From NCBI GenBank assembly GCA_964016885.1, contig OZ024740.1, forward strand, positions 195,796,001 through 195,860,000: a stretch of DNA of 64,000 nucleotides. The letters run 5' to 3'. This document shows positions 2,721 through 57,563 of this stretch, piece by piece (positions within the stretch are counted from its first letter, which is position 1; every line of letters starts with the position of its first letter). A program made the position numbers and the translations under genes. Below the pieces are notes generated by a model, which saw only the letters and a list, made by a program, of their open reading frames with translations, searched no databases and was not told where the DNA came from. Source of the stretch: Eledone cirrhosa. Lineage: Eukaryota.

Positions 2721-2858
2721 ATCATCATCATCATCATCATCAACGTTTAACGTCCGTGTTCCACACTTGCATGGGTTTGGACGGGGGTTTTCCCACTTGA
2801 GGCAAGAGTGATTGTCTTGCTCGCATAGGACTATCTGGCGGGTTTTCTACAGCTGGAT
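2721..2858 (-). mobile_element. 3'-terminal fragment of RTE LINE family A with (GAT)n tail, fused head-to-head to the next copy
   Basis: Matches the reverse complement of the RTE 3' end at ~3895-4035 and ~26395-26537. Confidence 0.85.
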
Positions 2859-4035
2859 CAGTGTGTAGGAAAGGAGTAGGCAGAAACTCCATTTTATGTC
2901 CCAAATGCAAAGTATGGGTGCATAAAAGATGTAGTGGGATCACAGGTAAGCTAACTAAGAATATAGATTTTATATGTGGCCGGTGCTCTGGTGCAATAAG
3001 TAGCAGCAAGTGCCCAAGAATACTATCTCATTCCATTGCACAGATGGTTCTATAGAAATAGTGGACACCTTCCGTTACTTGGGTGACAAAATCAGCAGTG
3101 GTGGAGGGTGCTCTGAAAGTACAGTAGCTAGAGTCAGAACTGGATGGAAAAAGTTCAGAGAGCTTATACCACTATTAGCCGCTAAGGGGTTCTCCCTAAA
3201 AATGAAAGGCAGGCTGTATGATGCCTGCATACGAACAGCAATGTTGCATGGCAGTGAGACCTGGGCATTGTGTGCAGAGGATATACGCAGACTGGAGAGG
3301 AACGAAGCTTGCATGCTCCACTGGATGTGTAATAGAAATATACGTGAACAGCAAAGCATAAACTAACTAAGGGAAAAATTAGAAATAAGAGGGATCAGAT
3401 GTTGTTTACTCGAGAGAAGACTACGTTGGTATGGTCACGTGATGCGCATGAAAGACGACAGCTGTATAAAAAAGTGCAGGGCAATAAAAATAGACGGTAA
3501 CCACGGAGTAGGCAGACCCAGAAAAACCTGGGACAACTTGATAAATTCTGACCTCACACACTTACACCTCTCCAAGAAAATGTCACTGGACCGAGATCTT
3601 TGGTGCTACACAGTAATACAGAAGACCCACCTTACCTAAGTACAAAGTGAAACCTACTACAGTCAGTAGGCACCTCTAACAAAAATACACCCCCATCCCA
3701 CTACCCCCACCCCATCCACCCACCCCTTTCAATGTAAAGTTATGTTGGTACCACAACATCCAGTCCAAAACAAATGAGGTCGTGTAGGTGTCACGACAAA
3801 AAAACACACAGTCCACGCTGTAATGTGGCCGTGTAGGTAACACGGTAAAAACCTCCCAGTCCACACTGTAAATGTGGTTGGTGTTAGGAAGGGCATCCAA
3901 CTGTAGAAAACCTGCCAGACAGTCCTATGCGAGCAAGACAACCACTCTTGCCTCAAGTGGGAAACTCCCGTCCAAACCCATGCAAGCGTGGAAGATGGAC
4001 GTTAAACGATGATGATGATGATGATGATGATGATG
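2859..4035 (+). mobile_element. 5'-truncated RTE LINE, family A (RT C-terminus, 3'UTR, (GAT)n tail), disrupted
   Basis: Peptides [31 protein letters not shown] and RPRKTW match the open copy at 24754-26028; frameshift near 3020 and stop at 3364. Confidence 0.92.
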
Positions 4036-5310: not shown

Positions 5311-5375
<65 letters not shown>

Positions 5376-5378
5376 ATG

Positions 5379-5409
<31 letters not shown>

Positions 5410-5413
5410 ATAT

Positions 5414-5444
<31 letters not shown>

Positions 5445-6889
5445 GGTTTAGCGTCCGTGTTCCACGCTTGCATGGGTTTGGACGGGGGTTTTCCCACTTG
5501 AGGCAAGAGTGGTTGTCTTGCTCGCATAGGACTGTCTGGCGGGTTTTCTAGTTGGATGCCCTTCCTAACACCAACCACATTTACAGTGTGGGGCTGGGAG
5601 GTTTATACCGTGTTGCCTACACGGCCACATTACAGCGTGGACTGTCTGGCGGGTTTTCTACAGCTGGATGCCCTTCCTAACACCAACCACATTTACAGTG
5701 TGGGGCTGGGAGGTTTTTACCGTGTTGCCTACACGGCCACATTTACAGCGTGGACTGTGTGTTTTTTGTCGTTACACCTACACGATCTCATTTTTTTCGG
5801 CCTGGATGTTGTGGGACCAACATAACTTTACATTGAAAGGGGCGGTGTGGATGGGGTGGAGGTGGTGGGACGGGGGTGTGTTTTGATAGAGATGCCTACT
5901 GACTGTAGTAGGTTTTTACTTTGTATTTAGGGAAGGCGGGTCTTCTCTATTACTGAGTACCGGCAAAGGTCTCAGTCCAGTGACATTGTCTTGGAGAGGT
6001 GTAAGCGTGTGAGGTCGGAATTTATCAGCTCGTCCCATGTTTTTCTGGGTTGCCTACTCCGTGGCTACCGTCTATCTTTATTGCCCTGCACTTTGTTATA
6101 CAGCTGTCGTCTTTCATGCGCATTACGTGACCATACCAACGTAGTCTTCTCTCGAGTAAACAACATCTGATCCCTCTTATTTCTAATTTTTCCCTTAGTT
6201 AGTTTATGCTTTGCTGTTCACGTATATTTCTATTACACATCCAGTGGAGCATGCAAGCTTCGTTCCTCTCCAGTCTGCGTATATCCTCTGCACACAATGT
6301 CCAGGTCTCACTGCCATGCAGCATTGCTGTTCGTATGCAGGCATCGTATAACCTGCCTTTCATTTTTAGGGAGAACCCTCTAGCGGCTAATAGTGGTATA
6401 AGCTCTCTGAACTTTTTCCATCCAGTTCTGACTCTAGCTACTGTACTTTCAGAGCACCCTCCCCCACTGCTGATTTTGTCACCCAGGTAACGGAAGCTGT
6501 CCACTATTTCTGTAGAACCCTCTGCGCAGTTGAAGGAGCTAGTATTTTGTGGGCACTTGCTGCTACTTATTGCACCAGAGCACCGGCCACATGTAAAATC
6601 TATGTTCTTAGTTAGCTTACCTGTGATCCCACTACATCTTTTATGCACCCATACTTTGCATTTGGGACATAAAATGGAGTTTCTACCTACGCCTTTCCTA
6701 CACACTGAGCATGGCCATTTCCCAGATGGGACTGCCGCCTTATTTTCTTTCCTACAAACTAGAACTTTAGTCTTAGCCAGGTTAATTTTAAGGCCTTTTG
6801 ATTCTAGGCCGTGCTTCCATGTTTGGAATTTCTTCTCTAGTTCGGTCATTGATTCAGCTATGAGCGTTAGATCATCTGCGTATAGGAGT
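5414..6889 (-). mobile_element. 5'-truncated RTE LINE, family A
   Basis: ORF 6199-6849 is nearly identical to the 24808 ORF; begins at LLYADD; 3'UTR has a tandem duplication and (GAT)n tail; (TA)n on both sides. Confidence 0.93.
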
Positions 6890-10444: not shown

Positions 10445-10565
10445 ATTGTTCTGCATCCCCTTGCATTGAACCACAAAGTTACTAAGACAAAACCTATATA
10501 TTTGCTGGCATAGCTATGCATATGTATATATATGTTGGTAGATATACTAATTCTTTATATATATA

Positions 10566-11039
10566 TATAAAGAAACAGTCAGCAAGGTTAGAATTAACAA
10601 TGAATATAGTGAAGAGTTTAGCGTAAAAGTTGGTGTTCATCAGGGCACCGTTCTTAGCGCCCTACTATTTATTATTGCCCTTCAGGCTATAACAGTGGAG
10701 TTCAAGACTGGCTGCCCATGGGAACTCCTATACGCAGATGATCTAACGCTCATAGTTGAATCAATGGCTGAACTAGAGAAGAAATTCCAAACATGGAAGC
10801 ATGGCCTAGAATCAAAAGGCCTTAAAATTAACCTGTCTAAGACTAAAGTTCTAGTTTGTAGGAAGGAAAATAGGGCACTGGTCCCATCCGGGAAATGGCT
10901 ATGCTCAGTGTGTAGGAAAGGAGTAGGCAGAAACTCCATTTTATGTCGCAAATGCAAAGTATGGGTGCATAAAAGATGTAGTGGGATCACAGGTAAGCAA
11001 ACTAAGAACATAGATTTTATATGTGGCCGGTGCTCTGGT
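10566..11039 (+). mobile_element. Internal fragment of RTE family A RT
   Basis: [18 protein letters not shown]...CSVCRKG (ORF 10695-11084). Confidence 0.9.
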
Positions 11040-11276
11040 CCACACCATACTGAGTTCATATTTTTGTCAGTGAAAACATTCTGATTTCTTTCAATGGAAC
11101 ATGAAGAGAAGTTGAAATATAATTTTAGAAACCTTGTTTGGCGAACTGCTAGACTTTAGGTTTTCTTTCCAGCAGAATTATTGGGACAAGTACACATATT
11201 TTTATCAAAGCATATTATCAATTACGGTGACTCTAGTATTTGTCTAGTACTTTATATGATTGATTGTGACACCTGT

Positions 11277-23778: not shown

Positions 23779-24317
23779 CATTTAATTTATTGATTTATTG
23801 ATTTTTTATCTGAGTGTCCCGAATCTTCCGGATCAAAAATTTTCGATCGTACGGTTGATTATAGACTTGTTCTATGTGTTGACGGTATTTTAACGATAGT
23901 TATAGCTCTGATTTATCTAAATTATGGAGCACTCTGCCGCTCATATCGAATTTTGTTTATCGTGAACTCGTGCGCCGATTTTTCGATACTCGATTATTCT
24001 ACTATATATATATATATATATATAAGTTGAAATAAAATGAAAACGAAATTTCATTTCTCACTCTTAGTACGGCACTTACTTAAATGTAAGTATGTATGTA
24101 TACGTACATACATATATGTATACAGACGTACAGTAGCATGCATATATATATATATATATATATACATACAGGTACACATACATATATGCACGTATCAGTT
24201 TAGCGGACGCTTATTATAACGCCGCTTTGTTCCTTTGTAAACAAACTGAACAGCCTGATTTATGCCATACGGTGTTAAGGCAACCACGTCACCTTTTTGT
24301 TCAACACTGACACAGGA

Positions 24318-24360
24318 ACGATGTACTAGTTTCAAGCTTGTTAGCTATCATCAGCACCAT
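24318..24360 (-). ncRNA. Minimal type-I hammerhead ribozyme motif
   Basis: AUGGUG-CUGAUGA-UAGCUAACAAGCUU-GAAA-CUAG-UA-CAUCGU; palindromic stem III ACUAGU; GUA triplet. Confidence 0.75.
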
Positions 24361-24462
24361 ACACCCTTCTGCCAGATAGTTGAACGTTCGAAAGTATATA
24401 CTTTCCTTATGAAAAGGGAAAGTATATACTTTCGAACGTTCAACCATCTGGCAGAAAGGTAT

Positions 24463-24505
24463 ACGGTGCTGACGATAGCTAACAAGCTTGAAACTAGTAC
24501 ATCGT
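24463..24505 (+). ncRNA. Minimal type-I hammerhead ribozyme motif
   Basis: ACGGUG-CUGACGA-UAGCUAACAAGCUU-GAAA-CUAG-UA-CAUCGU; predicted cleavage after 24499. Confidence 0.75.
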
Positions 24506-24751
24506 TCCTGTGTCAGTGTTGAACAAAAAGGTGACGTGGTTGCCTTAACACCGTATGGCATAAATCAGGCTGTTCAGTTTGTTTACAAAGGAACAAAGCG
24601 GCGTTATAATAAGCGTCCGCTAAACTGATACGTGCATATATGTATGTGTACCTGTATGTATATATATATATATATATATGCATGCTACTGTACGTCTGTA
24701 TACATATATGTATGTACGTATACATACATACTTACATTTATATATATATGT

Positions 24752-26533
24752 AACTACAGGAGAAGTACCTAGCTAAAAGTAAACCCCTATACTTAGCTTT
24801 CGTCGACTTGGAGAAAGCCTTCGACAGAGTCCCCCGTTCCATTATCTGGTGGTCTCTTAGAAAACTAGGTGTTGACGAATGGCTTGTGAGAGCTATACAA
24901 GCCATGTATAAAGAAACAGTCAGTAAGGTTAGAATTAACAACGAATATAGTGAAGAGTTTAGCGTAAAAGTTGGTGTCCATCAGGGCTCTGTTCTTAGCC
25001 CCCTACTATTTATTATTGCCCTTCAGGCTATAACAGAGGAGTTCAAGACCGGCTGCCCATGGGAACTCCTATACGCAGATGATCTAACACTCATAGCTGA
25101 ATCAATGACCGAACTAGATAAGAAATTCCAAACATGGAAGCACGGCCTAGAATCAAAAGGCCTTAAAATTAACCTGGCTAAGACTAAAGTTCTAGTTTGT
25201 AGGAAAGAAAATAAGGCGGCGGTCCCATCTGGGAAATGGCCATGCTCAGTGTGTAGGAAAGGCGTAGGTAGAAACTCCATTTTATGTCCCAAATGCAAAG
25301 TATGGGTGCATAAAAGATGTAGTGGGATCACAGGTAAGCTAACTAAGAACATAGATTTTACATGTGGCCGGTGCTCTGGTGCAATAAGTAGCAGCAAGTG
25401 CCCACAAAATACTAGCTCCTTCAACTGCGCAGAGGGTTCTATAGAAATAGTGGACAGCTTCCGTTATCTGGGTGACAAAATCAGCAGTGGGGGAGGGTGC
25501 TCTGAAAGTACAGTAGCTAGAGTCAGAACTGGATGGAAAAAGTTCAGAGAGCTTATACCACTATTAGCCGCTAGAGGGTTCTCCCTAAAAATGAAAGGCA
25601 GGTTATACGATGCCTGCATACGAACAGCAATGCTGCATGGCAGTGAGACCTGGGCATTGTGTGCAGAGGATATACGCAGACTAGAGAGGAACGAAGCTTG
25701 CATGCTCCGCTGGATGTGCAATAGTAATATACGTGAACGGCAAAGCATAAACGAACTAAGGAAAAAATTAAAAATAAGAGGGATCAGATGTTGTTTACTC
25801 GAGAGAAGGCTACGTTGGTACGGTCACGTGATGCGCATGAAAGATGACAGCTGTATAACAAAGTGCAGGGCAATAAAGATAGACGGTAGCCACGGAGGAG
25901 GCAGACCCAGAAAAACATGGGACGAGCTGATAAATTCCGACCTCACACGCTTACACCTCTCCAAGACAATGTCACTGGACCGAGACCTTTGGCGGTACTC
26001 AGTAATAGAGAAGACCCGCCTTACCTAAATACAAAGTAAAAACCTACTACAGTCAGTAGGCATCTCTATCAAAACACACCCCCGTCCCACCACCTCCACC
26101 CCACCCACACCGCCCCTTTCAATGTAAAGTTATGTTGGTCCTACAACATCCAGGCCGAAACAAATGAGATCGTGTAGGTGTCACGACAAAAAACACACAG
26201 TCCACGCTGTAAATGTGGCCGTGTAGGCAACCCGGTAAAAACCTCCCAGCCCCACACTGTAAATGTGGTTGGTGTTAGGAAGGGCATCCAGCTGTAGAAA
26301 ACCCGCCAGACAGTCCACGCTGTAATGTGGCCGTGTAGGCAACACGGTAAAAACCTCCCAGCCCCACACTGTAAATGTGGTTGGTGTTAGGAAGGGCATC
26401 CAACTGTAGAAAACCCGCCAGACAGTCCTATGCGAGCAAGACAAGCACTCTTGCCTCAAGTGGGAAAACCCCCGTCCAAACCCATGCAAGCGTGGAACAC
26501 GGACGCTAAACCTGATGATGATGATGATGATGA

Positions 26534-26537
<4 letters not shown>
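24752..26537 (+). mobile_element. Young 5'-truncated RTE LINE, family A
   Basis: Uninterrupted RT-to-C-terminus frame, 3'UTR with ~113-bp tandem duplication, (GAT)n tail followed by (TA)n. Confidence 0.95.
24754..26028 (+). CDS. RTE ORF C-terminal half (RT from FVDLEKAFD onward, C4HC3 finger, thumb); open but lacks N-terminus and start
   Basis: Open frame LQEKYLAK...FVDLEKAFD...GVHQGS...LLYADD...FRYLG...RLRWYGH...RPRKTW to stop at 26028. Confidence 0.85.
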   Translation, partial: LQEKYLAKSKPLYLAFVDLEKAFDRVPRSIIWWSLRKLGVDEWLVRAIQAMYKETVSKVRINNEYSEEFSVKVGVHQGSVLSPLLFIIALQAITEEFKTGCPWELLYADDLTLIAESMTELDKKFQTWKHGLESKGLKINLAKTKVLVCRKENKAAVPSGKWPCSVCRKGVGRNSILCPKCKVWVHKRCSGITGKLTKNIDFTCGRCSGAISSSKCPQNTSSFNCAEGSIEIVDSFRYLGDKISSGGGCSESTVARVRTGWKKFRELIPLLAARGFSLKMKGRLYDACIRTAMLHGSETWALCAEDIRRLERNEACMLRWMCNSNIRERQSINELRKKLKIRGIRCCLLERRLRWYGHVMRMKDDSCITKCRAIKIDGSHGGGRPRKTWDELINSDLTRLHLSKTMSLDRDLWRYSVIEKTRLT

Positions 26538-26571
<34 letters not shown>

Positions 26572-40261: not shown

Positions 40262-40600
40262 ATCATCATCATCATCATTTTACGTCCGCTTTTCCCTGCT
40301 TGCAAGGGTGGGACAGGAACTGATTCTGGCTTGATTTCTACAGCTGGATGCCCTTCCTAACACCAACCTCATTTACAGTGAGTGCTGGGTGCTTTTTTGC
40401 CGTGGCACCTCCACGACCACTTTGCAGTGGAATGATATCGACCCCAGTCCCTATCATCTCATTTCTACAGCTGAGTAAACTGGAGTAATGTGAAATAAAG
40501 TGTCTTGCTCAAGGAAACAACACATCACCCGGTCTGAGAATTGAACTCATAACCTTTCGATTGCAAGGCCAATGCTCTAACCACTAAGCCATGTGCCTCC
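40262..40600 (-). mobile_element. Young tRNA-head SINE with RTE-derived 3' tail (family 2)
   Basis: A box TGGCTTAGTGG, B box GAGTTCAATTC, CCTTGAGCAAGACACTT core; tail matches the RTE-B 3'UTR and ends in (GAT)n. Confidence 0.9.
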
Positions 40601-40636
40601 ACATGTCAATATTTATTATAAAACTGATCTATATTA

Positions 40637-56260: not shown

Positions 56261-56590
56261 TCATCATCATCATCATTTTACGTCTGCTTTTCCCTGCTTG
56301 CAAGGGTGGGACGGTAACTGATTCTGGCTTGATTTCTACAGCTGGATGCCCTTCCTAACACCAACCTCATTTACAGTGAGTGCTGGGTGCTTTTTTTGCC
56401 GTGGCACCTCCACGACCACTTTGCAGTGGAATGATATGGACCCCAGTCCCTATCATCTCATTTCTACAGCTGAGTAAACTGGAGCAATGTGAAATAGAGT
56501 GTCTTGCTCAAGGAAACAACACATCACCCGGTCTGAGAATTGAACTCACAACCTTTTGATTGCAAACTCTAACCACTAAGCCATGTGCCT
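56261..56590 (-). mobile_element. SINE family 2 copy
   Basis: Near-identical to 40262-40600. Confidence 0.9.
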
Positions 56591-56652
56591 ATATGTGTAT
56601 AATTATTTCGTATCTCTGTGTTTATAATTTTTTTTATTATATGTATATATAT

Positions 56653-56852
56653 AAGAGAATCAAAGTCAGTGTTGCAGCATATGTACAAATTTTATTGGAA
56701 TATTACAAGTGTTTCAATATCGATCAGCTCAGGGTTCAATCAAGATGACAGGGCATGACTCTTTTTCGACATCTCGTCAGTGATGTCTGAAACAATTGTA
56801 ATATGCCAATAAAGTTTGTACATATGTTGCAATACTGACTTCGATCCTTCTT
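56653..56852. repeat. Fold-back element with ~65-bp imperfect arms and degenerate hammerhead 3' halves
   Basis: 56653-56716 pairs with 56788-56852; the arms start at TGAAA-CAATTG-TA and TGAAA-CACTTG-TA. Confidence 0.8.
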
Positions 56853-57177
56853 AATCTATTTACACACTGCACATTTTAGTCACCTTAACCTTGGAATACA
56901 ACCCACACGAGTCCGACCGCGTAACAACATTGAGTGCTTCGAACAGCATGCCACCTGTAGCTACACACACATATATATGTGTGTGTATATATATATATAT
57001 ATATGTAAATGTGGTTGGTGTTAGGAAGGGCATCCAGCTGTAAAAACCTCGGCCAAATTTACAGTCTCCTTGGAGCAAGGTACGGTGTGGCCAATTCTGG
57101 CCAAACTTGTCTCTTGATGTGGACGAACCGTCTAACCCATGCAAGTATGGAAAATAGATGATAAATGGTGATGATGA

Positions 57178-57213
<36 letters not shown>

Positions 57214-57224
57214 CATACATACAT

Positions 57225-57563
57225 GGAGGCACATGGCTTAGTGGTTAAATCATTGGCCTTGCAATCGAAAGGTTGTGAGTTCAATTCTCAGACCGGGTGA
57301 TGTGTTGTTTCCTTGAGCAAGACACTTTATTTCACATTACTCCAGTTTACTCAGCTGTAGAAATGAGATGATAGGGACTGGGGTCCATATCATTCCACTG
57401 AAAAGTGGTCGTGGAGGTGCCACGGCAAAAAAGCACCCAGCACTCACTGTAAATGAGGTTGGTGTTAGGAAGGACATCCAGCTGTAGAAATCAAGCCAGC
57501 ATCAGTTTCCGTCCCACCCTTGCAAGCAGGGAAAAAGCGGACGTAAAATGAAATGATGATGAT
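57225..57563 (+). mobile_element. SINE family 2 copy (full length)
   Basis: GGAGGCACATGGCTTAGTGG ... AAGCGGACGTAAAATG..(GAT)n. Confidence 0.9.

Follow-up and report, generated by a model that had tools for sequence, protein, structure and literature searches.

In the Penelope-like elements (PLEs), an inverted and 5'-truncated copy of the element adjoins the upstream repeat, a tail of 30–40 bp is often found on one side only, and the targets are TA sequences, according to the available part of PMC8557442. Head-to-head inverted pLTRs with palindromes at their junctions are described in the accessible text of PMC3846280, where they are read as the result of self-priming. Dual hammerhead ribozymes on opposite strands, ~100–700 bp apart, have been reported, with a short palindromic helix III and activity as dimers (PMC4209133, available part). 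In the part of PMC11167929 that could be consulted, both target strands are cut and extended by the PLE reverse transcriptase (RT), and two internal RT start sites bound the tail; in vitro, cleavage is dispensable and uncleaved RNA is the dominant RT substrate. Retrozymes are presented as non-autonomous PLE derivatives in the available portion of Li et al. (bioRxiv 10.64898/2026.07.22.740005).

The window analysed here, a 64-kb stretch of the genome of Eledone cirrhosa, was described in an earlier note as carrying a 660-bp palindrome with back-to-back hammerheads at 24081..24740. The palindrome is present, but its boundaries differ from these, as the left arm extends ~57 nt past 24081 in family sequence, to 24025, so that the whole unit is 24025–24738 (Table 1). 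In the arm-to-arm alignment there are exactly five substitutions, at 24378/24445, 24366/24457, 24362/24461, 24359/24464, and 24350/24473, all transitions, and the left arm has one TA unit more than the right; no further differences are seen out to 24081/24740, and the count given in the note is therefore exact. All five are 5' of the predicted hammerhead cuts in both arms, as had been noted, and no more than 60 nt from the centre of the palindrome. In simulations, five substitutions fall within a span of 29 nt or less with P ~1.5e-4 and all five fall in the inner 83 of 324 nt with P 9e-4, and this clustering is not due to chance. The outer arms differ at 0 of 154 compared sites, and at 0 in the end block, against a family mean of 2.4%.

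Table 1. Features of the palindrome and its immediate flanks, in window coordinates.
Feature	Positions	Strand	Basis
(TA)n run at the left end, likely insertion target	24003..24024		Flank comparison
Left arm: 5'-truncated hammerhead monomer copy of subfamily A type, long (tailed) 3' end	24025..24415	-	Family comparison
Tail of ~57 nt between the two preferred 3' ends, left arm only	24025..24080	-	Tail as described in the available parts of PMC8557442, PMC3846280, and PMC11167929
Predicted type I hammerhead, left arm; predicted cut between 24324 and 24323	24318..24360	-	Descriptor match
Two left-arm changes, A>G and CpG C>T in the sense strand; combination unique to the palindrome among scored copies	24359..24362	-	Family comparison
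16-bp internal palindrome of the monomer, left copy	24390..24405		In every full monomer shown
Head-to-head junction: 9 nt of family sequence unique to the left arm and one extra base	24407..24416		Arm alignment
Right arm: 5'-truncated monomer copy, short 3' end of the family	24417..24738	+	Family comparison
Subfamily B segment of the right arm; diagnostic 24445C, 24457A, 24473C	24417..24473	+	Family alleles
16-bp internal palindrome of the monomer, right copy	24418..24433		Read from the sequence
Predicted type I hammerhead, right arm; predicted cut between 24499 and 24500	24463..24505	+	Descriptor match
B-to-A switch interval, 72 nt without a diagnostic site, predicted cut inside	24474..24545	+	Family alleles
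(TA)n run at the right end, likely insertion target; unrelated 5'-truncated RT element next	24739..24748		Flank comparison

Both arms are copies of a repeat that is abundant in this genome (3.0 Gb, 1,796 contigs). The right arm as query gave 43 matches at 95–100% over 224 nt from the 40 scored of 1,979 candidates, and a query with another segment of the family gave 2,252 first-look candidates. The 200 loci fetched were merged into 123 regions, with 10 further loci left out; these loci were chosen by similarity search, so they are not a random sample and the counts given here are not genome-wide frequencies. The family monomers, of 463–552 nt, are non-coding and in tandem. A single hammerhead is present in each, as are an internal TA run and the 16-bp palindrome that the earlier note had recognized in each arm. 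The longest stop-to-stop frames in the arms are only 87 aa, with no RT and GIY-YIG open reading frame (ORF). A subfamily, here called B, has a common inner haplotype, the inner 66 nt of the right arm being 100% identical at 40/40 scored places. Long tandem arrays of subfamily B are present at L045 and L130, where minor variants recur across copies, three copies apart in L045, which suggests higher-order duplication. At L020:1483-1918 the 5' part resembles one minor subfamily and the parts flanking it another, a possible double switch. No published description of this hammerhead repeat family was found in a search by title and the start of the abstract, with Repbase and Dfam outside its scope; the motif may be among the hammerhead alignments in the supplements of PMC4209133 and PMC7229834.

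It is very probable that the palindrome as a whole is a two-armed, head-to-head insertion into (TA)n of this high-copy hammerhead repeat, likely driven in trans by a Penelope-like RT/GIY-YIG protein, with a right arm that is mosaic. There are 81 head-to-head junctions, in 76 of the 123 regions, and divergent pairs of intact hammerheads less than 1,200 nt apart are present in 33 of these regions; the earlier note had missed that the palindrome is a routine bipolar insertion of a mobile family with many copies. Copies of the family end at two preferred points ~57 nt apart. Both ends could be classed in 51 insertions (a further 30 junctions could not be assigned). A short end is paired with a long one in 49 of the 51, the other two insertions are short at both ends, and a long end is never paired with another long end. 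The palindrome conforms to this rule, with the long end on the left arm and the short end on the right. The flanks were compared for 53 junctions, most of which run into (TA)n, and both arms are of the same subfamily class in 54 of 57 classified junctions. The 5' truncation points are spread over the whole monomer, without enrichment at the predicted cut (3/162, 4.1 expected). At the palindrome the spacer is 10 nt, the shortest among the 50 bipolar pairs compared, and it is because the truncation points of the two arms nearly coincide that the palindrome is near-perfect. It is an ordinary bipolar insertion, distinct within the family only by these near-coincident truncation points.

Directly to the left of the insertion is a segment of ~220 nt (window 23780–24002) with TA runs on both sides, possibly another TA-targeting element. 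Elsewhere in the window there is a second inverted repeat pair (56392–57432), with 174-nt arms that are 98% identical and 693 nt apart, and a related 327-nt copy at 40290–40616.

The predicted hammerheads were identified with a type I descriptor, made up of the core CUGANGA / GAAA / UH with helices I and II, all of which are found in both arms. Exactly two matches are present in the 64-kb window when both strands are searched, and they face outward, in agreement with the back-to-back arrangement first noted; for comparison, 3 of 100 Markov-shuffled windows had one match each. The predicted motif has a helix I of 6 bp, a helix II of 4 bp over a U.U mismatch, and a helix III of 2 bp with a palindromic 2-nt loop. 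In the fold of a single arm the pair probabilities are 0.91–1.0 in helix II and 0.14–0.59 in helix I. A search of Rfam found nothing at the gathering score; there is a weak match for the left arm only, to Hammerhead_HH9 (14.3 bits, E 2.5, cut-off 52). Rfam matches to miRNA families were discarded, being matches to the shape of a hairpin and far under the cut-off.

Conservation of the core in other copies had been set in advance as a test of the motif, and the core is intact in 253/274 family copies. The U.U at the base of helix II is present in 266/274 copies, and the G10.1-C11.1 pair is absent. Although highly conserved, this pair is not obligatory: the axolotl HHR_Amex2, with U.U in that position, was tested in the available part of PMC7229834 and cleaves, better as a dimer. 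By analogy with the hammerheads in the accessible text of PMC4209133, the palindromic loop of helix III would need a second sense copy.

Full transcripts of the palindrome fold as a single long hairpin (-570 and -587 kcal/mol), and in the full plus-strand transcript every hammerhead pair has a probability of 0.0. The transcript of each strand has one sense ribozyme masked by its own antisense, as the earlier note proposed. Because the sense motif is fully masked in the hairpin, the predicted ribozyme is likely inactive at the palindrome, and both hammerheads, with one sense copy per strand buried in this way, are likely silent.

Within the 43-nt motif there are four recurrent variants (those seen in at least 5 regions), at N7, in loop II, and as C-G to U-G and G-U to A-U changes, all of which are tolerated, compared to 37 in the 106 nt of monomer positions 206–311. 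Positions 166–205, just past the motif, have five recurrent variants in 40 nt, and this low variation indicates that conservation reaches beyond the ribozyme. Four two-sided pair changes were found in the motif, in one copy each, and scattered pair-breaking changes are also present. The C/U at N7 and the C-G to U-G change in stem I of the palindrome are as originally described, but the conclusion drawn from them, that structure has been preserved at this locus, is not upheld, as the C at N7 is a subfamily allele that came with the source lineage, and the U-G change lies at a CpG and is found again in 11 regions. Since the tolerated changes are inherited or recurrent, any selection acted on the source lineages and not on the palindrome, and the variation of the predicted motif across the family copies fits this.

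Like the metazoan non-LTR retrozymes, as these appear in the available parts of PMC7229834 and bioRxiv 10.64898/2026.07.22.740005, this family consists of non-coding, low-GC tandem monomers with one predicted type I hammerhead each, has no LTR layout, and shares its genome with PLEs; with the axolotl HHR_Amex2 (PMC7229834) it has in common the U.U at the base of helix II and the 2-bp helix III. The monomers differ in length, being 463–552 nt here as against repeats of 150–450 bp and circles of ~170–400 nt there, and they also differ in having an internal TA run. The bipolar layout with fixed short and long ends, dominant here, is not discussed in the available parts of those two sources; the word 'inverted' appears a single time in the preprint, within a reference. 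In the EN+ PLEs (Penelope/Poseidon, Neptune), as far as the accessible texts describe them, there are similarly partial tandems, a head-to-head inverted and 5'-truncated copy, a one-sided tail between two start points, AT/TA targets, a hammerhead in the repeat, a small palindrome near the 5' junction, and opposite-strand hammerhead pairs 100–700 bp apart (PMC4209133). Unlike these elements the present family has no ORF, its tail is ~57 nt rather than 30–40, and the tail, optional or one-sided there in what is available of the sources, is close to a rule here (49/51).

The arrangement also resembles the twin-primed inversions of LINE-1, in that two oppositely oriented cDNAs would meet 5' end to 5' end; short overlaps at the join are frequent in both. 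In L1 twin-priming, each of the two parts comes from a different segment of a single RNA, whereas both arms here repeat the same 3' segment, hence the palindrome.

By comparison with the family, the derived base is in the right arm for three of the substitutions (24445, 24457, and 24473) and in the left arm for the other two (24362 and 24359), the base at 24464 being the family state. By these and the other family alleles, the right arm is a mosaic, of subfamily B inside and of the left-arm haplotype outside, and it is this mosaic that accounts for three of the five clustered mismatches. At least 5 of the 8 outer B alleles are present downstream of the cut in 42 of 44 copies with the B inner haplotype; the right arm of the palindrome and the copy at L003 carry 0. 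Instead, the outer right arm equals the left arm, including the rare allele 251G (5/327 segments). The suggestion in the earlier note that the inner and outer parts have different histories is therefore borne out; homogenization of the outer part, which it also proposed, is not general across the family. No source copy for the left-arm haplotype was found at 100% among the scored matches, the best being 98–99%.

A second B-to-A mosaic is present at an unrelated locus, L003:1348-1990 (G000:C2 near 136.126 Mb, minus strand), with its switch in the same interval as in the palindrome and a non-canonical 3' end. This locus was also retrieved by the query made of the inner part only, and no inverted partner is present in the 1.3 kb read or in the 3.2-kb locus. 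Other candidate chimeras were set aside. L122 and L137 were dropped as B|C chimeras, as the two arms of L122 agree in an intermediate outer haplotype that is also found in L137; because of their similarity to a minor subfamily, L021, L027, L029, and L132 were left out of the count, L021 being ambiguous. Editing of the hairpin RNA was rejected as the origin of the arm differences, as 3/5 are inherited family alleles and the changes are split between both arms. A>G changes on one strand make up only 3/5 of the derived changes, and inherited B alleles account for 2 of these 3.

In the mechanism proposed for the insertion, an enzyme would nick both strands of a TA run, and two internal starts ~57 nt from each other would be used, the short one for priming one cDNA and the long one for priming the other. 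Each cDNA would be truncated upstream of the ribozyme cut, at a distance of ~83 nt in one and ~92 nt in the other, and the two would then be joined 5' to 5'. For the mosaic, the cDNA of the right arm would leave an A-type RNA at its ribozyme-made 5' end and continue at the 3' end that the ribozyme had produced on a B-type RNA; the ribozyme itself would act as a dimer in tandem arrays. That a template jump at the predicted cut made the mosaic right arm is a plausible but tentative reading, chosen narrowly and about as likely as an event at the level of DNA; any route other than a jump, a DNA-level event, or an assembly product is unlikely. The copy at L003, which switches within the same interval with no inverted partner seen, speaks for a jump. 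Against it, the interval is 72 nt wide, and switches that cross the cut are rare, at 1/99 B-inner copies as against 0/54 for switches within the unit, in loci from one-sided queries with the palindrome excluded, a difference that is not significant. In 20 other arm pairs there is no inner excess of differences (44/1932 inner and 68/3059 outer, 13 of the 44 from one misaligned pair, L153), and truncations are not enriched at the cut. The preference of the RT for uncleaved RNA in vitro (PMC11167929, available part) also speaks against a jump. No published subfamily switches at a hammerhead cut were found in the literature search by title and the start of the abstract. The wider proposal, that RNA ends made by hammerheads are points of template jumping in vivo for a Penelope-type RT and that each two-armed insertion is a concerted asymmetric reaction with one start site per strand, is somewhat more doubtful than the jump itself.

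The mosaic could equally have arisen in DNA, with about the same modest likelihood as the jump, the palindrome having broken or extruded at its centre and the inner ~60–130 nt of the right arm having been recopied from an ectopic B copy, or conversion from arm to arm having overwritten an outer B arm; the match to the cut site would then be a coincidence, and in the recopying error-prone synthesis would have given the two changes of the inner left arm. The spacer that is the shortest of 50 pairs, the position of all five differences close to the centre, the identity of the outer arms, and the left haplotype for which the scored matches hold no source copy would all fit with this, as would the switch interval, which is among the longest stretches identical between the subfamilies, so that DNA recombination would favour a switch there too. 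Yet the length of the spacer and the divergence of the arms are unrelated in the 49 other pairs (rho 0.04, p 0.79), the four next-tightest pairs have no such pattern, and L003 has the same switch with no palindrome. Arms of mixed subfamily are not seen elsewhere among the 57 junctions, L122 resolving to one intermediate haplotype and L071 having an F-type call on both arms. Rare alleles are common to both arms in 10/49 other pairs, which would suggest that a common source RNA explains the identity of the outer arms. An assembly product, from a fold-back read, mixing of haplotypes, or polishing with mis-mapped repeat reads, is unlikely. Long palindromes and high-copy repeats are difficult to assemble. 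This has been noted for PLEs in particular (PMC8557442, available part), and the Logan contigs of four runs (no more than two samples, from one study) are in pieces of ~60 nt, with which the locus could be neither phased nor spanned. However, a fold-back would give identical inner arms and a mirrored flank, whereas here each arm stops at a different one of the two canonical ends and the flanks are unlike each other, as in the 49/51 short and long insertions of the family, which argues against such an artefact; mis-mapping across the family would have erased the rare allele 251G that the outer arms retain.

It is rather less likely still that the palindrome was formed by fold-back self-priming at the 16-bp palindrome, with the mismatches being later mutations or editing of the hairpin RNA. 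The junction does abut the 16-bp palindrome, junction palindromes in Penelope are read in this way in the accessible text of PMC3846280, and in the minus-strand hairpin all five mismatches are G.U wobbles (chance 1 in 16). That three of the five belong to an inherited subfamily haplotype largely refutes the part of this explanation that concerns the mismatches, and in addition a fold-back yields identical inner arms and the truncation points of the family are spread across the entire monomer. Least probable is a selected regulatory unit, the palindrome serving as a source of hairpin RNA or siRNA or as a ribozyme switch that its own antisense keeps inactive. The long hairpin formed by the full transcript, which abolishes the hammerhead fold, is what such a unit would have, but the layout is a by-product common to many insertions of the family and the arms look young. 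A two-armed insertion, with the right arm made mosaic perhaps by a template jump, is preferred to these.

In this genome, there are RT and GIY-YIG ORFs that gave 150 scored matches, all above the cut-off, from 10,595 candidates, and both domains were named in 3/7 of the long ORFs scanned. In the 40 GIY-YIG loci investigated from these matches (20 short, 20 long), there is neither an autonomous partner for the hammerhead family nor a pLTR that links to it. A family copy is present at 1/40 of these loci, nested in a neighbouring TA run and not as the pLTR of the element. This is at L204:400-5350, where an RT and GIY-YIG fragment has its own long inverted repeats and TA-run ends, and the hammerhead monomer in the adjoining TA run is older (81%). 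Stop-to-stop frames of 938, 844, and 1096 aa with RT and GIY-YIG matches are present at L191:2309-5122 (-), L192:1988-4519 (+), and L193:1775-5062 (+), respectively; on these matches they are candidates for intact Penelope-like elements and might be partners of the family. Near GIY-YIG elements there are also type I hammerhead-like motifs, at L180:1030 (+), L202:1485 (+), and L200:5981 (+), that are unlike the palindrome family in sequence, and head-to-head pairs of ORFs are present at L196 and L202.

The retroelement that abuts the right TA run of the insertion (window 24749–26540, plus strand) is a 5'-truncated RT element, presumably RTE-like, with a 424-aa frame that has RVT_1 and PHD matches and no GIY-YIG, and it ends in (GAT)n followed by a (TA)n tail. 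Near-identical copies of it are at 5330–6889 (-), 2858–3525, and 10563–11063.

Back-to-back hammerheads are an already published by-product of Penelope-type insertion, and taken alone the locus is unremarkable. What the hammerhead does in PLEs and how the tandem and inverted layouts arose are both left open in the available parts of PMC8557442 and PMC11167929, and the data from this family bear on both. That a short end is almost always paired with a tailed one (49/51) restricts the models to those in which each start site is used a single time in one concerted reaction. With subfamilies that can be diagnosed, the positions of switches relative to the cut can be determined in thousands of copies: an accumulation at the cut would mean that cleaved monomers do serve as templates, and its absence that the templates are uncleaved or circular RNA. 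Should the reading of a template jump together with a concerted reaction be true, this high-copy family with its several subfamilies would be a natural data set for the purpose of the hammerhead in PLEs and for the formation of their tails.
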